A stretch of 64,000 nucleotides of DNA from Cetorhinus maximus. Its lineage: Eukaryota. The notes below the pieces were generated by a model. The model saw only the letters and a list, made by a program, of their open reading frames with translations. It did not search any database and had not been told where the DNA came from. The first letter of the stretch is position 1. Each line of letters begins with the position of its first letter. The DNA lies in contig NC_135884.1 of the NCBI RefSeq assembly GCF_964194155.1, positions 37,820,001 through 37,884,000 of the forward strand. The letters run 5' to 3'. Positions 17,008 through 44,095 of the stretch are shown in pieces. The translations under genes and the position numbers were made by a program.

Positions 17008-17314
17008 CCTCCAGCCCCGATTGCGGGCGGCAATCGGCTTCCCGACCGCCCCCACCCACTCCCGACGAGCCCGCCCGACAAGGGCTAAATTCTGCCCCAT
17101 GGTTCCTTGTTCTGATGAACAGGGTTCTTGTCACTCCGATGTGAAATCTTGGTTCCTGCATCTCAATGTTGCTTGTCATTGCTGCCAGAATGTCATGGGC
17201 AGGCATCACAGAGTTCTGTCATTTTCTCTGAATGTTCTCAGCATCTTTAAGGTGGGGCTGGCACCCATCTCGTCAGTATCTGTGACCAATGAAGCTGTGT
17301 TCCTGAAGGGGTCA
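17008..17314 (+). repeat. 307-bp direct copy of 19051-19357
   Basis: Ungapped alignment with about 17 mismatches (hand count). Confidence 0.95.
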
Positions 17315-17399: not shown

Positions 17400-18444
17400 A
17401 CTCTTTTGAGTCAAAACAATAAACTAAATGAGCAAAAAGGAACAAGGGAGAAAACAAGCACAGCCCCTAATTCAGGTCAGCTGTAAAATCAAGGAAAAAC
17501 TTTAAAGGAACCTTACAAACATCAAACTAAGATGTGATTAAAGGGGTCAACAAAACACCCCAGACCCCGCGGTGCCCACCGAGCACGGAAGGCCTCGATG
17601 GTGCCGGCAGACACCGCGTGCTCCCTTTCCAGGGACATCCGGCCGCGAACGTAGCCGCGGAAGAGGGACAAACAATCGGGCGGGACTCCCCCGTCGATCG
17701 CCCGCTGCCTGGACCTGTTGATGGCCAACTTGGCCAGGCCCAGGAGCAGGTTCACGAGGAGGTCCTCCTCCTTCCCGACCCCCTTCCGCACCGGGTGCCC
17801 GTAGATCAGGAGCGTGGGACTGAAGTGCAACCAAAACAGTAACAAAAGATTTTTTAAATAACTAAAAAGGGAGTGCAGCCTAAGACACCCTATATACACG
17901 TGGTCCACGGACTCCACAAGACCGCAAAAAGGGCAGGTGTCTCGGGAGTCCGTGAACCTACACATTTTACGATTATAGGGGACTGCTGCATGCAACACCC
18001 TCCAACCCAGGTCCCCGATAGAAAGAGGGAGAACACCTCCGTAGAGGGCCTCCCATCGGGGGCCTCCGCCGCCGGACGGCAACAAGGCACGCCAGGGCGT
18101 GTCCGGGCGGCGGACCAGGGCGAGAAAATGGAAGGTGTGCAGCAGCAGTCCGTACAGAAAACCCCTCCGCGCCGTGCCAAATGGCACGGAGGGCATGTCC
18201 CCGAGGCGGCTCATATTATTGCGGGGCACCGGCACCCGAGGGAGGGTTCGGGGCTTGGGGACAATGTGGAATTCCGTCCGAACAGGGGAACGTTCAGCCG
18301 GAAGATCACCGCGCACCTGAGCCACCTCCAGACCTAAAATGACTTCGGGTCCGAGCACGACCGTTTTTAGGTCTTGGATGGCATCGGCTGCGACCTGGAC
18401 ACTCACTGACGCGCGACGCGCCAACTCCTGCGGGAGCATCCAGC
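17400..18444 (-). mobile_element. Tx1-clade LINE, 5'-truncated, young
   Basis: Open ORF ending at 17522 with zf-RVT motif WRVLH..CPFC..ESVDHVY..C; CpG-rich; 16-bp TSD aagttaagaatatgta (17384-99, 18445-60). Confidence 0.93.
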
Positions 18445-18546
18445 AAGTTAAGAATATGTAGTTGCACAGCCTGGGCACGGGTGTTAATTACTTGTACATG
18501 ATGTTCACTATTGTAAATAAACTCCCAAGAATGTCCCCCTGCCTAT

Positions 18547-19140
18547 GGGCAAAATTTTTAGCTGGGTGGGCGGGTGAGTGTGTGCCTGACCCGCTCGAGC
18601 GTAAAATGACGTACGTTGACGTCGGGCGAGCATCCCGACATCAACGCGTAGTCACGCAATATTTCATTCAGCGGGCATGCGCCAGAGTCAGCAGTGCGCC
18701 CGCCAACAATTAAAAGACTTGTTAAGCCCATTAACAAGGTTATTAAATTAAATTTTTTGCTGCCTTTCCAGCCTTACGGTTGGCGGGCAGCGCAAAGGCC
18801 AAGCGGCCTTTTTATAAAACCTCAACCATGGGTGGGATGACGTTTCCTGAAGCAAATAAAAATAAAAAATTTAAAACTCAATTAATAACATGTCCCTGCT
18901 CATGTAACAGAGTCACATGAGAGGACACGTTTTATTGCCTTGCTTAATTCGTTTTTTTTTGAAAATGCTTCATCTCCCTGAGGCAGCGTTGAGCGTTGCA
19001 CTTGTGTTTCACACTGGGCGGGCCTTAATTGACCCACTGACGTGAAATCGCCTCCAGCCCCGACTGCGGGTGGCAATCGGCTTCCCGACCGCCCCCACCC
19101 GCCCCTGCCGAGCCCGCCCGACAAGCACTAAATTCTGCCC
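18547..19140. mobile_element. Harbinger-type hairpin-rich MITE, second copy
   Basis: TIR gggcaaaattt / aaattctgccc; flanks TAT/CAT; colinear with 5332-5975. Confidence 0.8.
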
Positions 19141-19661
19141 CATGGCTCCTTGTTCTGATGAACAGTGTTCGTGTCACTCCGATGTGAAATCTTGGTTCCT
19201 GCATCTCAATGTTGCTTGTCATTGCTGCCAGAATGTCATGGGCTGGCGTCACAGAGTTCTGTCATTTTCTCTGAATGCTCTCAGCATCTTTAAAGTGGGG
19301 CTGGCACCCATCTCGTCAGCATCTGTGACCAATGAAGCTGTGCTCCTGAAGGGGTCAGGTGCTGAAGGCTGACAAAGGATCAGGTGCATTTAAAGTTTCA
19401 CGGCTGCGTCTCCATGATATGACACTGATCACAAAGCGCAAGTGCTTGGCCAGACAGGAGTCAACCATTTTCAGGGGCTATGTAAAGATCTATGGAGCGT
19501 TCTCACTGCATGTCGTCATCATCCTCCTGGATTCGAGCGACTATTAGGGCCTCCGCTGCGTCTCCGTGACAGGAGCCTTTTCACAGAAGGTATGTGCGTT
19601 GCCATCAGCCAGACAGGAATCAAACCTTCACAGATGCAATGTGAGGATCTATGGCATCTCC

Positions 19662-27520: not shown

Positions 27521-27970
27521 CAGCCAAAAAGACAATTTTTGTAATGAATTATATCTCTACCACGTGCACATACATTAACTGCTAAGTACGTGGGTGGGTC
27601 AGCTTCCGTTTTAGTTACACCACACATGGGTCACTCGGTACCTGTGTCAGAAAGTAGTTATATTGTTCACTATGATAAATTATGGATCACACCAAGGTCA
27701 GATATATTTAGCATGGCACAGCCATGTTTGGATGCAATTGTTGACCAGCCAAAAAGACAAATTTTGTAATGAATTATATCTCTACCGCATGCACATACAC
27801 TAACTGCTAAGGATGTGGGTAGGTTAGCTTCGGTTTTAGTTACACCAGATGTGGGTCACTCGGTACCTGTGTCAGAACATAGTTATATTGTTCACTATGA
27901 TAAATTATTGATCACACCAAGGTCAGATATAGTTAGCATGGCACAGCCATGTTTGGATGCAGTTGTTGAC
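27521..27970. repeat. Tandem duplication, 2 x 225 bp
   Basis: 27521-27745 and 27746-27970 align without gaps, about 17 mismatches. Confidence 0.95.
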
Positions 27971-28340
27971 CCCTGCTCACTTATTAGCTATATTTTAACA
28001 TCAGGAGAGCACAGATTGGAGCAACTGGTTTCTACAAAGATTAATAACACTGAAAAATACAAACTGGTCACACGTAAGAAAACATGAGCTGTCACACTGT
28101 ACAGCACAGTGTATCAGGTTACTTAGTTATCCTATCAGGTTACTTGGTTATCCCTCATGCAATATGAAACGCTGCTGGCTTTATTTGGTTTCTTTTACTA
28201 ATTTTGAGCCCATCTAGGTTGCAGGCGGTTTCTCTTCAAAGATTAGGCAGTTTTGTTTGAATGGAGGTAGATCTTATATTTCAGAAGAATCTAATTCTAA
28301 ATGTCGAATTAATTATTGCTGCATAATTAAATTCAGAAAT

Positions 28341-31989: not shown

Positions 31990-32718
31990 ATTACACTTAC
32001 TATAGTATATTCTTATACTAAACTACATGCACAATTATTGAAAGTTGAGCAACTTTAATTTCCTTTTTTCTTCTTCAAACTCAACTTACAAAAATGTTTT
32101 CAGTACCAGTGCATTTTTAAATTGCATGCACTATGTGACCATACATACTGGAGTTACCTCAGGTTAACTGGCAGAAATAGTTCTAGTTGAGCTAAGCGGT
32201 TCATATTCACATTATCATCCCAAAGAGGTAAAGTTTTGTTTTGCCAGTGGCTGAACAGGATCAAACCCTCAGATAATGAATATGGAGATGTACTGCATAA
32301 ATGTTCAATTGTATTAATTATTTGAGTAGTGGGTGTGATTAATTTCATTGTCAAAACCCCGGAGTTGAATCACAAATTGAAGTTAATGTTAGCTGGGGGT
32401 GTAAAACAGGCCACTCATCTGATCCCATTATTTCCCCACTGGCTGAGTTAGGTTAACATTTCCCAAATATTTTCCCTCTATTTCACACACAGCTCAAATC
32501 CTGTTAGTACCTCTCACTTATGAACATACTTAATTCTCTATTTGTGTAAATCTTATGAAGTGTCCAGTAAGGTGAATTTCAAGGGAAGAAGTTCCTTTCA
32601 AATTGGAATGCTAAAGCTCTACATGTTTAATGTAGTGGAAACCTAAAAGGGGGCTATGCTAATTGAAGAGGCTGGGGTAGATATTTTGTAGCTGATACTT
32701 TTTTTCAAACAGCAATTT

Positions 32719-33532
32719 GTCATTTGGTAGTACAGAACTTGAGTATTGCTGAAAAAAGAGACATGTCTAAGCTTTTCGTCTTGCACTCATCAGGACACTC
32801 GCAAGAATATCAAAATAAGAGGAAGAGAGCAATTTATACTGTATGTGAAGAGAATGCTTGGTTGGCAAGTGGTGTTGCCATGGTGAATGCACCACTGATG
32901 GTGACTGACAGTTAACTGCCAAGCATTGTTTGAAATTTAAAATTTAAACCAAGCAGCTTGACCCTGATTGATCAAGTTATTGTCCTGAGGCAGTGAATGG
33001 CTGTCACTTATTTTGTTTAGCTGAAAAAGGTGCAATGTGTGTACATGCTCTTTCTGTCTGCAAAGAACAAGGCCCTGTGTATAATATATGTAGCTTTCAG
33101 TACATGCAAATGCACCACATTGCAGGCCTGACTGACAATCTTAAATTGATTGTCAGCATAATTCTTAGCTCACTCAGGATTACTCAGCAAATGTTGTCCA
33201 ATCGTGGAATCACACCAAATTGGACACTGTGTTTTGAGATTTGCAAGCATGGGCCGGTTGGGTATGGTCTGTATCCTGTCTGTTGCGAACAGTGGCTAGG
33301 ACACTTGAGTGTCCTAGTGGCTGCTTGATATGATCCGACAGTCTTTGGGACAGACCTAGCTTCACACTGGCACTGAGATTCACATACCACATTACTCATT
33401 TGTGTCATAGGCAGACCGTCTTTTTGGCCTGACATAGCATCCTGTATTCACCACTAACAGGATGTTGTATTCTTGCGAGTGTTCTAATGAGTGCAAGACG
33501 AAAAGCATAGATGTGTCTCTTTTTTCAGCAAT
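32719..33532 (-). mobile_element. ORF-less Penelope-like retroelement with inverted hammerhead-bearing ends
   Basis: 66-bp inverted repeats 32744-809 and 33468-533 (5 mismatches); 25-nt extension on one side; 12-bp TSD aaacagcaattt (32707-18, 33533-44). Confidence 0.7.
32763..32798 (-). ncRNA. Minimal type I hammerhead ribozyme motif
   Basis: GUGUC-CUGAUGA-GU(gcaag)AC-GAA-AAGCUU-A-GACAU: intact core, 5-bp stem I, palindromic stem III, UUA triplet. Confidence 0.7.
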
Positions 33533-34907
33533 AAACAGCAATTTCTTTCGACAAATGCAAATTTGCTCGTTACTCGGCATGCCACCAGTTTGTAATGTTA
33601 CGTTACGTGGATAAAATAAAATGTATTGGGACTTTTTGAAAAAAGGAGATCAAATTAGGTGGACTTGGTTATTTTATGTAAAAACATAACAAACCTCCAG
33701 TTATGAGAACAATGGTGGCAACAAACAGCCAAGTTAATTTTGCTTCATTAAAAGTAGGATGCAGTTATCATAAATACATTTAAATCAATTCACTATATCA
33801 GCCTAACATAGTTCTACCGCCATTAAAATGGATGAGATACGCTTAATATTAAATAGAATGAAAATGAATAATGCAGCAGAGAAAATACATAATTAATTTC
33901 CAACAGCTTTTGTTCTATGCCATTGTTGGCAAATAAACATCAAAAATTCAGAAGGACAGCCAAACCATTTACAATCCAAAAAAAATCTGCCAATATGCTT
34001 CCCAATGTGTGTACCTGAATTATAATATATTATTTGTATTACAGACTTAAGCACATTTCCTTCTTTCCCTTCAAACTACAATCAATCATTTGCAACTTTC
34101 TTTTTTACAATTCTTCTCTACAAAAGCCAGTGTTGATCAAGGAAGCAAAGATCTCCCAATTCCAAACAAGTGGATTTTGGTAAAAATCAACTTTACTTTC
34201 CACTGTTCCAAATAAATTCCCTTTTTGAAGATTTGTTTCTATTCCTAAAAGGAGAGATTACAATCAGAAACCCAGGCTTGCAATTCTGGTATGTTAATTG
34301 ACTATCTTTTTTCTCCAAACTGATCAACGGGCTGTTTATACGAGTGATTATGTTGCAAATTTCAACCAGTTTTTTAGAATAAATGAAGAAATACAAGAAT
34401 AGTAAGCTCTAAACGGGAGGTAAATGAATATGGCTAGATAGATGATGCATCAATTCAGCCCCGTATATGAGTCTGAAAGCTATCACACATTTCACTGGAG
34501 ATCTAGGTGAGCAGGACTCAAGTAAAGACCCATGACCTCCAGGCATCATTCTCTGGTTTTTCCTTTCTTGATAAGCTATTAGTGGCTTCAATAGAAGAAG
34601 TCCCAAATTTTGTGCTGCTTCAAATAACTGCTCTCAGAATCTCAAAAATAGCAATTCCTGGATAGAACAGGGTACTTTCTAAATGTTGAAAAGCTAGAAC
34701 AGTGGAGGTCTACAGAGACTTGGGGGTCAAAGTACAGGTCATTAAAATATCTTAAGCTGGTACAGAAAATAATGAAAAAGGCTAATGGAATGCTGATCTT
34801 TACATCTAGAGGCCGAGAATGCAAGGGATTAGAAGCTATGCTTCAGCTAAACAAAGCCCTGGCTAGACAACATTTGGAGTACTGTGAGTTCTGGGCATCA
34901 CGAAATA

Positions 34908-37356: not shown

Positions 37357-40305
37357 CCTCCCCCCAAGTCTTTATCCAGCATATTTCAAGTTATTCTAGT
37401 TTACCCCTTGTACTTACATTATTATTACTACCCCATTTCCTCCCTTCAAATCTCTGAGTTCATAAGTTCAAGCGGTCTGGAGACCTTAAAACCCTTACCT
37501 ATCTGGTTCGCACTACTGTCGGAGGAGTGGTAGGCTCTGTTATTGCAGGTAAATTCTGTTGATTTGGAGATTATTCTGTCATCTGGGTATCTTCCTCCAT
37601 GTCTCTCCACTGAACTGTGGGAATGGGTGATCTAGGGATGAGGAGGAGACCCCTCTTGTTTTTCCTGACAGTACAGTTTGGGGTTCCAACCTCCCTGAGG
37701 TTGATTATCGTCCTTCCTGATTATAGTACCCTCTCTCTCTCTCGAGGTCTTTAATCCAGACCTTATCATCCTTTCATCATTCTGGCAAGTGTCTGGTGCG
37801 GTGCCTTTTGTTGTAGGCAGAAGCCTGCTTCTGCCGGTAGGACTGCTCTCTTGCTTGGATGTTCTGGTAATCTTTGGTTACCACCCTGGTATTAGTTTTT
37901 TTGTCAGGATTGGAAGTCATGCGCGGAGTTCCCTGCCCATCAGAAGTATGGCCACATTGTAACGGGGTAGACCTCAGGTTAGCACTGCTGTGGGAAAGTC
38001 CTCATTCTATTTTAGGAGGGCTTTTACAGGGCGAACCACTCTTTCGGCCTTCCAATTTGTGGGTATCTTGGGGAGCTGGTATGGTGGTGGAAGCGAGATG
38101 TGGTGGTGAAGTTTGCGAAGTGCTTATTTAAAAATTGTGAGCCATTATCGGACACAATCTCGTCTGGGATGCCGTGGCTCACGAACATCCCTTTCAGTGC
38201 CTTAATGACTGCCTCTGTGGTAGTCATATATAGTTGCTTCACTGCAACACATCTGGAAAAGTAATCCACCACTATAAAGAATGATTTGCTGTTGAAGACT
38301 AATACATTGATGCCCAGTCTCTCCCATGACCTAGTAGGGAACTGTGTGCGGATGAGGGGCTCTCTTTGGTCCTGCCTGTGCAACACACACCAGATAGTTT
38401 GCTATGGTGCCCTCAATCGCCTTGGAAATGCCTGGTCACCAGATAGTGTATTGGGTCCATGCCCTGCACTTGGTGATGCCAGGTGGCCCTGGTGCATTTT
38501 TTGAAGGATCTCTGGCTGAAAGGAAACTGGAGTGACCAGCCGCTCATTGTAGACCAGGGGATCATCTATGACCATAAAGTGTTTTTGTTGTTCGAACCAA
38601 GCTTTCATGGTACCACCATTTGGTCACTATTGTGTCACCCTTGTTGGCAGTTTAACAGTGGAGGTGGCCACATCATGCATTTGTTCCTGGCAAATCTGTT
38701 GGAGTTTATTAAGGGTTGCAGGCAGGTATCTCCTTGTCAATTGGAGGTACGCTTCCAGCTCTTTGATGAGATTGATGTCCCATTTGATCGAAAGGCCTAC
38801 TATGGCCCTGGAGAGTGCATCTGCCATTGCTTGGCTTTTACCTTGGGTGTATACCGTCTTGTATGCAAACCCCATGCGGCATAGGTGGAAATTGTGGACT
38901 CTGGGCAATCTTTGCCAGCTTCTTCTCATCCAGTAATGAGACTAGTGGTTTATGGTCTGTTTCAATTGTGACCTTGAGGCCGATGATATAGTCTGAAAAC
39001 ATCTTGCATGCCTCATGACTGTAAGGGCTTCCTTTTCCATGACGACTTACCTCATCTCTGTGTCTGACAGCCCTCTGGAAGCGTGGTAAACCAGCCGGCA
39101 ACTTCCATCCTGTTGTTCCACCCCAAGGCCTACGAACGAAGCATCCGCTGCTATGGTGGTGGGCAGGGATGGGTCGTAGTGGGCCAGAATGTCAGTGAAG
39201 AGCTGCATCACCTTGATGTGAGTGAATGCTTGCTCTTGATGCTCCCAGCACCATGCCTGGTCTTTCTTTAGCAGATGTCTCAAGGATTCAGTGACCTGCG
39301 GAGAATTTGGTAAAAATTTTTCCAGCTGCTTCACCATCCCCAAATATCACTGGAGGTCTGGAATCGAGGATGAGGTTGGAAACTTGCTAATGGATTTAGT
39401 TTTCTGTGGGTCTTCTGTGATGCCTTTATTGCTGACGATGCGGCCCAGGGACCAAATTAATGTTTTGGAGAACTCACATTTCTCATTTAGCGTCAGCCCT
39501 GCTTCCTACAGGCACCTTAAGACTGCTTGAGTCTTTTGCCATGTTCATCCACCATTGTACTTTGAGCCAATATATCCACACAGCAAATGATCCCCTGTAG
39601 GCCCAGCAAAATGGTCGGCATCATACTCTGAAGTGTTTCTGGTGCCGAAGTGATTCCAATTGACAGGTGGTTAAAGCAGAATCTGCTGAAGTGGGCAATG
39701 AATGTGGTCGGCAGCCTGGACTCTTCATCAAGGGGAAATTGCCAAAAGGTGTTGTTGGCATATAGCTTTGAAAATACCATGGCTTTTGCTGGTCTTTAAA
39801 CGTGATTCTTCCGAATTAAGTAATTAATTAATTTTCCCTCTCGGAATGAGCTCAGATGCCATGTGTTCAGGGAGCAACTTGGGAATTTGGTTTTTCCAAC
39901 AGAGTCTTCAAACAGCAATTTCTGGCCACTGAACTATTTAAGTTTCTCAGGGCTTACTTTATCCGGGAATTTAAAAGCTTTAGCTCACCCCTGCTAGATC
40001 TACTGACTCTGTACTCTGGGAATTGAAGCTGGACTTCCAAGAGATCCTATGGAGTCTTCTGCTGCCGTGAGGAAATTTAAATTTCCGCCTGCAGCTTCTA
40101 AGCCTTTCTTTGGAGCTTTTCCCTGGTGATTTTCCTCTGTGTGTTTGCTTCTCGAGATTTTTTTCAGATCAGGATGTTTCTTTAAATTTTTCTTTAGTCT
40201 TTCAGGATTTCAGTTTTTCTCTGCATTTTTTGCAAGGTTTTGGGTTTTTCCATTCACAGCCACTGTGTTTTAGGGTGCTGGATACTGTCCAGTAGGTCTT
40301 AATGA
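37357..40305 (-). mobile_element. Gypsy/Ty3 internal region (RT, RNase H, integrase), deleted, with a 5' LTR stub
   Basis: FSKL..FWQ.PL..GITSAPE (RT); ADASFVGLG, ETDHKPL (RNase H); VVDYFSR..GIPDEIVSDNG (integrase); 40266-40303 matches the LTR at 37081. Confidence 0.9.
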
Positions 40306-40372: not shown

Positions 40373-40743
40373 AGGCGATTGAGGGAACCATAGCAAACTG
40401 TGGTGTGTGTGCTGCACAGGCAGGACCAAAGAGAGCCCCTCATCCCCACAAAGTTCCCTACCAGGTCATGGGAGAGACTTGGCATCAATGTATTTGCTTT
40501 CAACAGCAAATCATTCCTTATAGTGGTTATAGTGGATTCTTTTCCAGATGTGTTGCAGTGAAGCAACTATATATGACTACCACAGAGGCAGTCATTAAGG
40601 CACTGAAAGGGATGTTCGTGAGCCACGACATCCCGGATGAGATTGTGTCCGATAATGGCTCACAATTTTTAAATAAGCACTTCGCAAACTTCACCACCAC
40701 ATCTGGCTTTCACCACCATACCAGCTCCCCAAGATACCCACAA
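40373..40743 (+). repeat. Inverted copy of integrase core 38057-38422
   Basis: Nearly identical peptide FSRCVAVKQLYMTTTEAVIKALKGMFVSH.IPDEIVSDNG..SSPRYPQ on the opposite strand. Confidence 0.93.
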
Positions 40744-43439: not shown

Positions 43440-44095
43440 GGTCCCCCTTGTCCTCACTTATCACCCCACCAGCCTCCACATTCAAAGGATCATCCTCCGC
43501 AGTTTCCGCCAACTCCAGCATGATGCCACCACCAAACACATCTTCCCTTCAACCCCCCTGTCGGCATTCCATTGGGACCGTTCCCTCTGGGACACCCTGG
43601 TCCACTCCTCCATCACCCTCTACACCTCAATCCCCTCCCACGGTACCTTCCCATGCAACCGCAGAAGGTGCAACACTTGCCCCTTTACTTCCCCCCTCCT
43701 CACCATCTAAGTGAAGCAGCACTCCACTTGCACTTCCCTCAATTTAGTCTACTGCATTCGCTGCTCCCAATGCGGTCTCCTCTACATTGGAGAGACCAAA
43801 CGCAGACTGGGTGACCGCTTTGCGGAACATCTTCAGTCTATCCGCAAGCATGACCCAGACCTCCCCGTCGCTTGCCATTTCAAACACCACCCTGCCCTCA
43901 TGCCCACATGTCCATCCTTGGCCTGTTGCAATGTTCCAGTGAAGCTCAACACAGACTGGAGGAACAGCACCTCATCTTCCAATTAGGCACTTTGCAGCCT
44001 TCCTGACTTAACATTGAGTTCAACAATTTCAGATCATGAACTCTCTCCTCCATCCCCACCCCCTTTCCGATCCCCCTTTTTCCAATAATTTATAA
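43440..44095 (+). mobile_element. Penelope-like element 3' part (GIY-YIG endonuclease)
   Basis: VPLVLTYHP; C..C..C zinc motif; LVYCIRCSQCGLLYIGETKRRLGDRFAEH. Confidence 0.92.

Follow-up and report, generated by a model that had tools for sequence, protein, structure and literature searches.

The nearest described counterparts of the locus considered here, at 32707–33544 of the window (the whole 64,000-nucleotide stretch of Cetorhinus maximus DNA analysed), are Penelope-like elements (PLEs) of the green anole and of the rotifer Adineta vaga. Poseidon_Ac (PAc), as described for the green anole (PMC11167929), has one open reading frame (ORF) encoding an RT together with a GIY-YIG endonuclease at the C-terminus, forms partial tandems with pLTRs and carries a hammerhead at the pLTR–ORF junction, and two 3′ end sites downstream define an optional tail. 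All of this is also found in the family to which the window copy belongs, and the ends of PAc likewise do not lie at the ribozyme cut. According to the same account, the anole protein cuts and extends both strands in vitro, the RT starts at two internal sites bounding the tail, and the template is unprocessed RNA, the ribozyme cleaving only with protein (PMC11167929). The PAc start codon lies 26 nt before the cut, whereas the window family's ATG follows the predicted cut by 3 nt; PAc RT starts ~111–118 nt into the ORF, whereas window-family copies end ~24 and 45–55 nt past the cut (PMC11167929). The two are compared here by their descriptions. Every full-length window-family copy examined (16) is broken.

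Pen2a_Av and its Penelope relatives in Adineta vaga are described with the same ~840-aa ORF and inverted 5′ pLTR, and with an 8–10-bp target-site duplication (TSD) enclosing the unit, comparable to that of the window family (PMC3846280). One inverted pLTR has a 31-bp tail, and pLTR and tail together encode the first residues of the ORF, as here; the Adineta vaga pLTR has a TATA box, and a TATA-like hexamer is found in the window pLTR (PMC3846280). The rotifer elements are described as having few copies, in contrast to the thousands of the window family, and the window copy is without the RT part (PMC3846280). The same layout as that of the window family is also described in PMC8557442. Minimal hammerheads of metazoan PLEs are, like the one studied here, of type I, with a 4–5-bp helix I, palindromic positions 15.2–16.2 and G10.1–C11.1, but helix II has 2 bp with a 5-nt loop in the window as against the 7–8 bp described for Schistosoma (PMC4209133). 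In that description, Schistosoma motif pairs on opposite strands, 100–700 bp apart, are ascribed to truncated PLEs (PMC4209133). Non-LTR retrozymes share a type I hammerhead and pLTR-related sequence with the window element; they are described as non-coding tandem arrays, whereas the window element is a lone fragment derived from coding sequence and bearing an inverted arm (bioRxiv 10.64898/2026.07.22.740005).

The window element is best read as an old, 5′-truncated insertion whose source was an autonomous Penelope-like retrotransposon, one that likely belongs to the Penelope/Poseidon clade. It consists of the endonuclease end, a pLTR with a predicted hammerhead, a tail, and an inverted second copy of 66 nt; we put the probability of this reading at about 0.93. 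Its features are as follows.

32707..32718, no strand: left copy of the target-site duplication; the family tail, whose match extends 52 nt past the predicted cut, overlaps its innermost few bases
32719..32743, minus strand: Penelope tail, in which the ORF N-terminus of the following tandem unit continues; homologous to the N-terminal end of the intact protein P0009
32744..32764, minus strand: codons 1–7 of the ORF, starting with the ATG at 32764–32762; 32744 is the short 3′ end site
32763..32798, minus strand: minimal type I hammerhead motif, predicted cut 32768/32767; matches the family majority at 36/36 positions
32799..32943, minus strand: pLTR / 3′ UTR with TATA-like TATAAA at 32838–32833, X-box-like site at 32874–32887 and decayed CCAAT boxes; putative promoter
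32944..33445, minus strand: decayed C-terminal part of the ORF, covering the GIY-YIG endonuclease region and interrupted by frameshifts and a stop; truncated on the 5′ side at ~33445
33447..33467, plus strand: short fold-back of ~21 nt, family sequence from across the truncation point, inverted, with an 8-bp stem at the junction
33468..33533, plus strand: inverted 5′-truncated second copy of 66 nt with a mutated hammerhead; ends at the short 3′ site, without a tail
33533..33544, no strand: target-site duplication, right copy

An earlier note, made from the letters of the window, had reported a 12-bp TSD, 66-bp inverted repeats and a 25-nt extension, and all three are present: the direct repeat (32707–32718 and 33533–33544) is exact, the arms (32744–32809 and 33468–33533) are complementary at 61 of 66 positions, and 25 nt separate the left direct repeat from the left arm. 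The fold-back with its 8-bp stem had been overlooked. The right flank (33534–33800) is single-copy in the genome. The interior, which the note had taken to hold no recognisable ORF, is a frameshifted GIY-YIG endonuclease C-terminus on the minus strand (33435–32944). It matches the endonuclease region of the intact RT and endonuclease protein P0009 (E 1.7e-12, in pieces over three frames with one stop) and the open frame of a sister copy (E 3e-26). The ORF's ATG follows the predicted cut by 3 nt. The 25-nt extension, homologous to the N-terminus of P0009, keeps the same frame and encodes first residues of the ORF, as is also described for Penelope tails. The window element is thus the 3′ ~730 nt of an autonomous RT and GIY-YIG element, the RT part being wholly absent. 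Within the endonuclease region, a copy-specific insertion of ~15 nt creates a 9-bp hairpin (33288–33325), adjoined by an 11-nt deletion at ~33352.

With the element as query against the 4.0-Gb genome, 12,480 first-look candidates were obtained and the best 40 scored, the best matches among these having 80–84% identity. In all 29 other top copies the shared sequence runs on past the window truncation point (~33445) towards the RT side, and each has one hammerhead end. RT motifs lie upstream in 16 of 30 loci. Full-length units of ~2.7 kb are present in the genome, and 16/16 examined are broken, with longest stop-free frames of 159–259 aa, but P0009 (840 residues) is covered over 783–839 residues in every one of them, giving a single ORF with RT followed by a C-terminal endonuclease. 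One locus, L040, is a full partial tandem (pLTR–ORF–pLTR, unit ~2.73 kb), and it and others have the partial tandems forming pLTRs and the heavy 5′ truncation of EN+ Penelope-like elements, with a hammerhead motif in the pLTR. The link to Penelope-like elements drawn in the earlier note stands. First-look candidates, which are not copy numbers, were 647 for the ORF start against 12,480 for the 3′ part; such a ratio (~1/20) is expected from 5′ truncation.

When a natural 262-aa frame was searched against proteins, 19 longer ones were retrieved, of which 18 have RT domains and are 33–48% identical; no named reference PLE protein was among them. The intact relative P0009 matches RVT_1 above the cut-off (E 2.7e-9) and the RT fragments of the family itself fall below it (E 3e-4 to 0.03); a PDB sequence search with an RT fragment gave nothing significant. 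The endonuclease alignment (A1) has CxC between the GIY- and YIG-like strands, two His and conserved R and E, with Y115, C119, C121, Y125, R128 and R132 invariant and H140, H178 and E210 nearly so, which is the GIY-YIG arrangement with a CCHH motif. Pfam GIY-YIG (PF01541) has no match in the family's own four endonuclease frames and matches 4 of 5 intact relatives below the cut-off (E 0.006–0.025), so the domain call rests on the motif alignment. A CX2-5CxxC Zn-finger linker between RT and endonuclease is absent from the linker region of A1, which is the Penelope/Poseidon pattern as given in PMC8557442, and on these sequence features the family likely belongs to that clade. It appears to be a further EN+ Penelope-like element of a known kind, new or uncatalogued, for which a Repbase or Dfam entry may exist. 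A literature search for Penelope/Poseidon in shark genomes found no paper.

Another PLE family, Neptune-like in having a Cys-rich linker ahead of its GIY-YIG, is represented by a fragment at 43741–43830 (plus strand) of the window and at L008:336–869 and L011:3217–3729 (Pfam GIY-YIG E 8e-4 for L008). The window also contains an inverted duplicate (38057–38422 and 40373–40743, 93% identical) with integrase-like open frames in both copies and a 307-bp direct duplicate (17008–17314 and 19051–19357, 94%) flanking a 321-aa frame (17522–18487) that resembles the C-terminus of Tx1/L1 ORF2, both labels being by eye, as well as a 226-bp unit duplicated head-to-tail (27521–27971, 92% identical). In Heterodontus francisci, a stretch of P0019, named 'prostaglandin E receptor 4c', is 66% identical to the Penelope family's frame, and may be a gene-model read-through or an exonisation.

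The earlier note had preferred a retrozyme-like, non-autonomous family whose inverted hammerhead ends would be fixed and whose mobility would depend on a Penelope RT acting in trans. A hammerhead at both ends and a TSD would fit such a family, vertebrate non-LTR retrozymes are reported as pLTR derivatives (bioRxiv 10.64898/2026.07.22.740005), and non-autonomous PLEs and trans-mobilisation are described (PMC3846280, PMC8557442). However, the interior is endonuclease coding sequence, and not one of the 40 copies scored has the 815-bp layout. No other copy among the best 40 of 12,480 candidates has the right arm that follows query base 746, and a same-layout copy is unlikely outside these because it would rank at the top. 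The length of the arm differs from insertion to insertion, and a tandem repeat search at the window element found neither a tandem array nor tandem monomers, so that the tandem non-coding hammerhead array of a retrozyme is missing here. We therefore consider this explanation very improbable.

The ends of comparable insertions were examined in 25 insertions hand-picked from the top BLAST hits, with a 3′ end at both outer borders (not a random sample), and 600 shuffled flank pairs served as control. Direct repeats of at least 9 matched nt flank 17/25 inverted insertions as against 14/600 controls, and those of at least 11 matched nt flank 12/25 as against 0/600. The duplication is thus real, as the earlier note had supposed, and its length varies among similar insertions from ~9 to 14, as in EN+ Penelope-like elements. 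Tails were counted in these 25 and in three insertions first left out (28 in all, other interrupted loci lying outside the count): a tail is present at one end in 24, at both in 0 and at neither in 4 (P ~8e-5 under random placement), and at a looser threshold 2/28 score as two-tailed. At the threshold of the count, the insertions have the inverted 5′-truncated copy and optional one-end tail of EN+ Penelope-like elements, the tail being on either the long or the inverted arm depending on the insertion. Among L001–L030 the inverted arm is anywhere between 66 and about 790 bp long, and because of this variation the 66-bp repeat of the window is a property of a single insertion and not a family terminus. 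Other arrangements seen are a tailed pLTR nested inside another Penelope copy (L093:2466–2634) and an inverted internal Penelope piece at the 5′ end of L040 (5228–5424).

With inverted and direct repeats at its ends, the element could also be taken for a MITE, a DNA transposon that is non-autonomous and bounded by terminal inverted repeats, a label against which the earlier note had already warned. Its warning was sound: the left repeat sits 25 nt inside the TSD, TSD length is variable (~9 to 14), the repeats are not shared termini abutting a duplication of fixed length, and the family encodes an RT. The probability of a MITE is accordingly negligible.

The left hammerhead, on the minus strand (32798–32763), combines CUGAUGA, GAAA and palindromic AAGCUU with a stem I of 5 bp and a stem II of 2 bp capped by a 5-nt loop; A17 lies at 32768, giving the predicted cut at 32768/32767. 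The motif is therefore intact on the left arm, as had been noted, and has the core CUGANGA, GAAA, NUH, stems I and II and palindromic stem III of a minimal type I hammerhead. The right copy is mutated, also as noted, with a CUAAUGA core, a palindrome that is broken as well, and 5 differences from the family majority. A covariance-model scan, of the kind that the earlier note had proposed, gave no hammerhead match for either arm in Rfam at E up to 10, only 7 chance-level hits. The note had also held that its reading would fall if the consensus lacked the catalytic core; the column majority of 96 hammerhead segments has the full core. The core is kept in 41/96 segments, core, stems and palindrome together in 22/96, and all 36 majority positions in 2/96. 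The catalytic G12, which lies in a CpG, has changed to A in 28/96 copies as against 31/96 at a non-catalytic CpG (P 0.75); the hammerheads of the family decay without sign of selection, and the catalytic G behaves like a non-catalytic CpG. Position 17 is A in 64, T in 20, C in 11 and G in 0 of the 96 copies, its variation being confined to cleavage-permissive bases, and copies with C or T at this position look to be a subfamily in which C17 sits in a decaying CpG and stem I often starts with T.

By computation the monomeric hammerhead is unfavourable (+3.2 kcal/mol with stem III closed) and does not form the ground state, which accords with the description of minimal hammerheads in PMC4209133. 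Self-cleavage of the window hammerhead is a prediction from its motif. The earlier note had further suggested that a panhandle could mask the ribozyme. A panhandle does form in the computed fold of a read-through RNA, as follows from the inverted repeat alone, but the arm is specific to this insertion and the idea does not hold as a mechanism of the family.

Selection for a host function might have kept the left hammerhead, since it retains 36/36 majority positions, a score reached in only 2/96 segments, against 5 differences in the right arm, and since the insertion is common to two further organisms, B and C. Yet the product of the per-position retention values is ~2%, equal to the observed rate, so that thousands of copies should include many intact motifs, and the window copy was picked for its intact look. 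Nor is the copy as a whole better kept. Non-CpG divergence from the column majority is 3.7–6.4% (mean 5.2%) for the top 29 copies, a figure biased low by the choice of top hits, and 6.6%, with several indels, for the window copy. A hammerhead fold that is not the computed ground state also argues against co-option, which we regard as a most improbable explanation. The window copy has likely decayed neutrally since its insertion. In B and C the flanks differ from the window by ~3%; contigs cross the right junction, 56 of their bases lying within the element, and reach 26–28 bases into it at the left junction, which is under the 31-base rule. The insertion thus likely predates the separation of these organisms from the source of the window. 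An empty site was also sought, and among the joints listed, of more than 320 from 4 runs, there was none that skipped the insertion.

The X-box-like 14-mer that had been noticed in the window does lie at 32874–32887. The family majority has one good X-box half site, 93 nt before the hammerhead core, and two CCAAT boxes, 174 and 71 nt before it; the X-box 10-mer is exact in 12/29 copies and present in a looser form in 20/29. The X-box-like and CCAAT motifs of the pLTR are candidate RFX and NF-Y sites, and the pLTR may carry an RFX and NF-Y germline promoter. A literature search on Penelope retrotransposons and the RFX X-box gave no relevant title among those listed.

How copies end relative to the predicted cut bears on the template. 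Of 102 hammerhead-bearing segments, 17 continue into the ORF and 85 terminate, with 36 of the 85 termini at 18–32 nt beyond the cut, 39 at 40–60 nt beyond and 2 within 5 nt. The ends cluster at these two places and not at the cut, so the templates were likely uncut. That 5′ ends might mark ribozyme cleavage, an idea raised by L094, was rejected: of 50 ORF-start copies, the start lies upstream of the cut in 35 and no more than 10 nt from it in 3, with no excess over the adjacent bins (8 and 4). On both counts the copied RNAs were likely uncut at both hammerheads. L108, with both ends near the cut, has no TSD and appears eroded.

Given the observed anatomy, full-length family, TSDs, two clusters of 3′ ends and one-sided tail, the insertion may have proceeded as follows. 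The RT-endonuclease would nick both target strands ~12 nt apart; the first strand would prime reverse transcription at the tail site of the ribozyme-uncut RNA, with ~730 nt being copied, and the other strand would prime at the short site ~25 nt upstream and copy 66 nt plus a 21-nt jump. The two truncated cDNAs would then join head-to-head via ~8 complementary bases, and repair fill-in would yield the 12-bp duplication.

Alternatively, the inverted arm of the same Penelope element could be the product of one template, possibly antisense, that primed itself or folded back, or of a second insertion into the first. Junction palindromes are read as self-priming on an antisense template in the account of PMC3846280, the window junction has an 8-bp stem and a 21-nt fold-back, and nested copies such as L093 exist. 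However, a stem of at least 7 bp is found at only 3/18 examined junctions, and a fold-back would give identical 3′ ends on both arms, whereas the observed arms differ by the tail. A single TSD encloses both arms in most insertions, which would be unexpected from an independent second insertion. For the junction step only, we hold these routes to be unlikely but serious alternatives to the joining of two cDNAs primed on opposite strands. Under that two-strand scheme, the two RT start sites could be used with an obligatory asymmetry, the tail site on one target strand and the short site on the other, as a dimeric RT-endonuclease with non-equivalent halves would give; this is possible, and is put forward tentatively.

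In itself the locus is a dead piece of transposon of an ordinary kind; it serves as a caution that decayed Penelope ends mimic non-coding elements with terminal inverted repeats. It points to a high-copy family with countable insertions, in which the one-sided tail, the 9–14-bp duplications and the lack of ends at the cut quantify, and agree with, the published in vitro model of an uncut template and extension of both strands. If asymmetric priming is true, the thousands of copies would be a large natural data set on the second-strand step of PLE integration.
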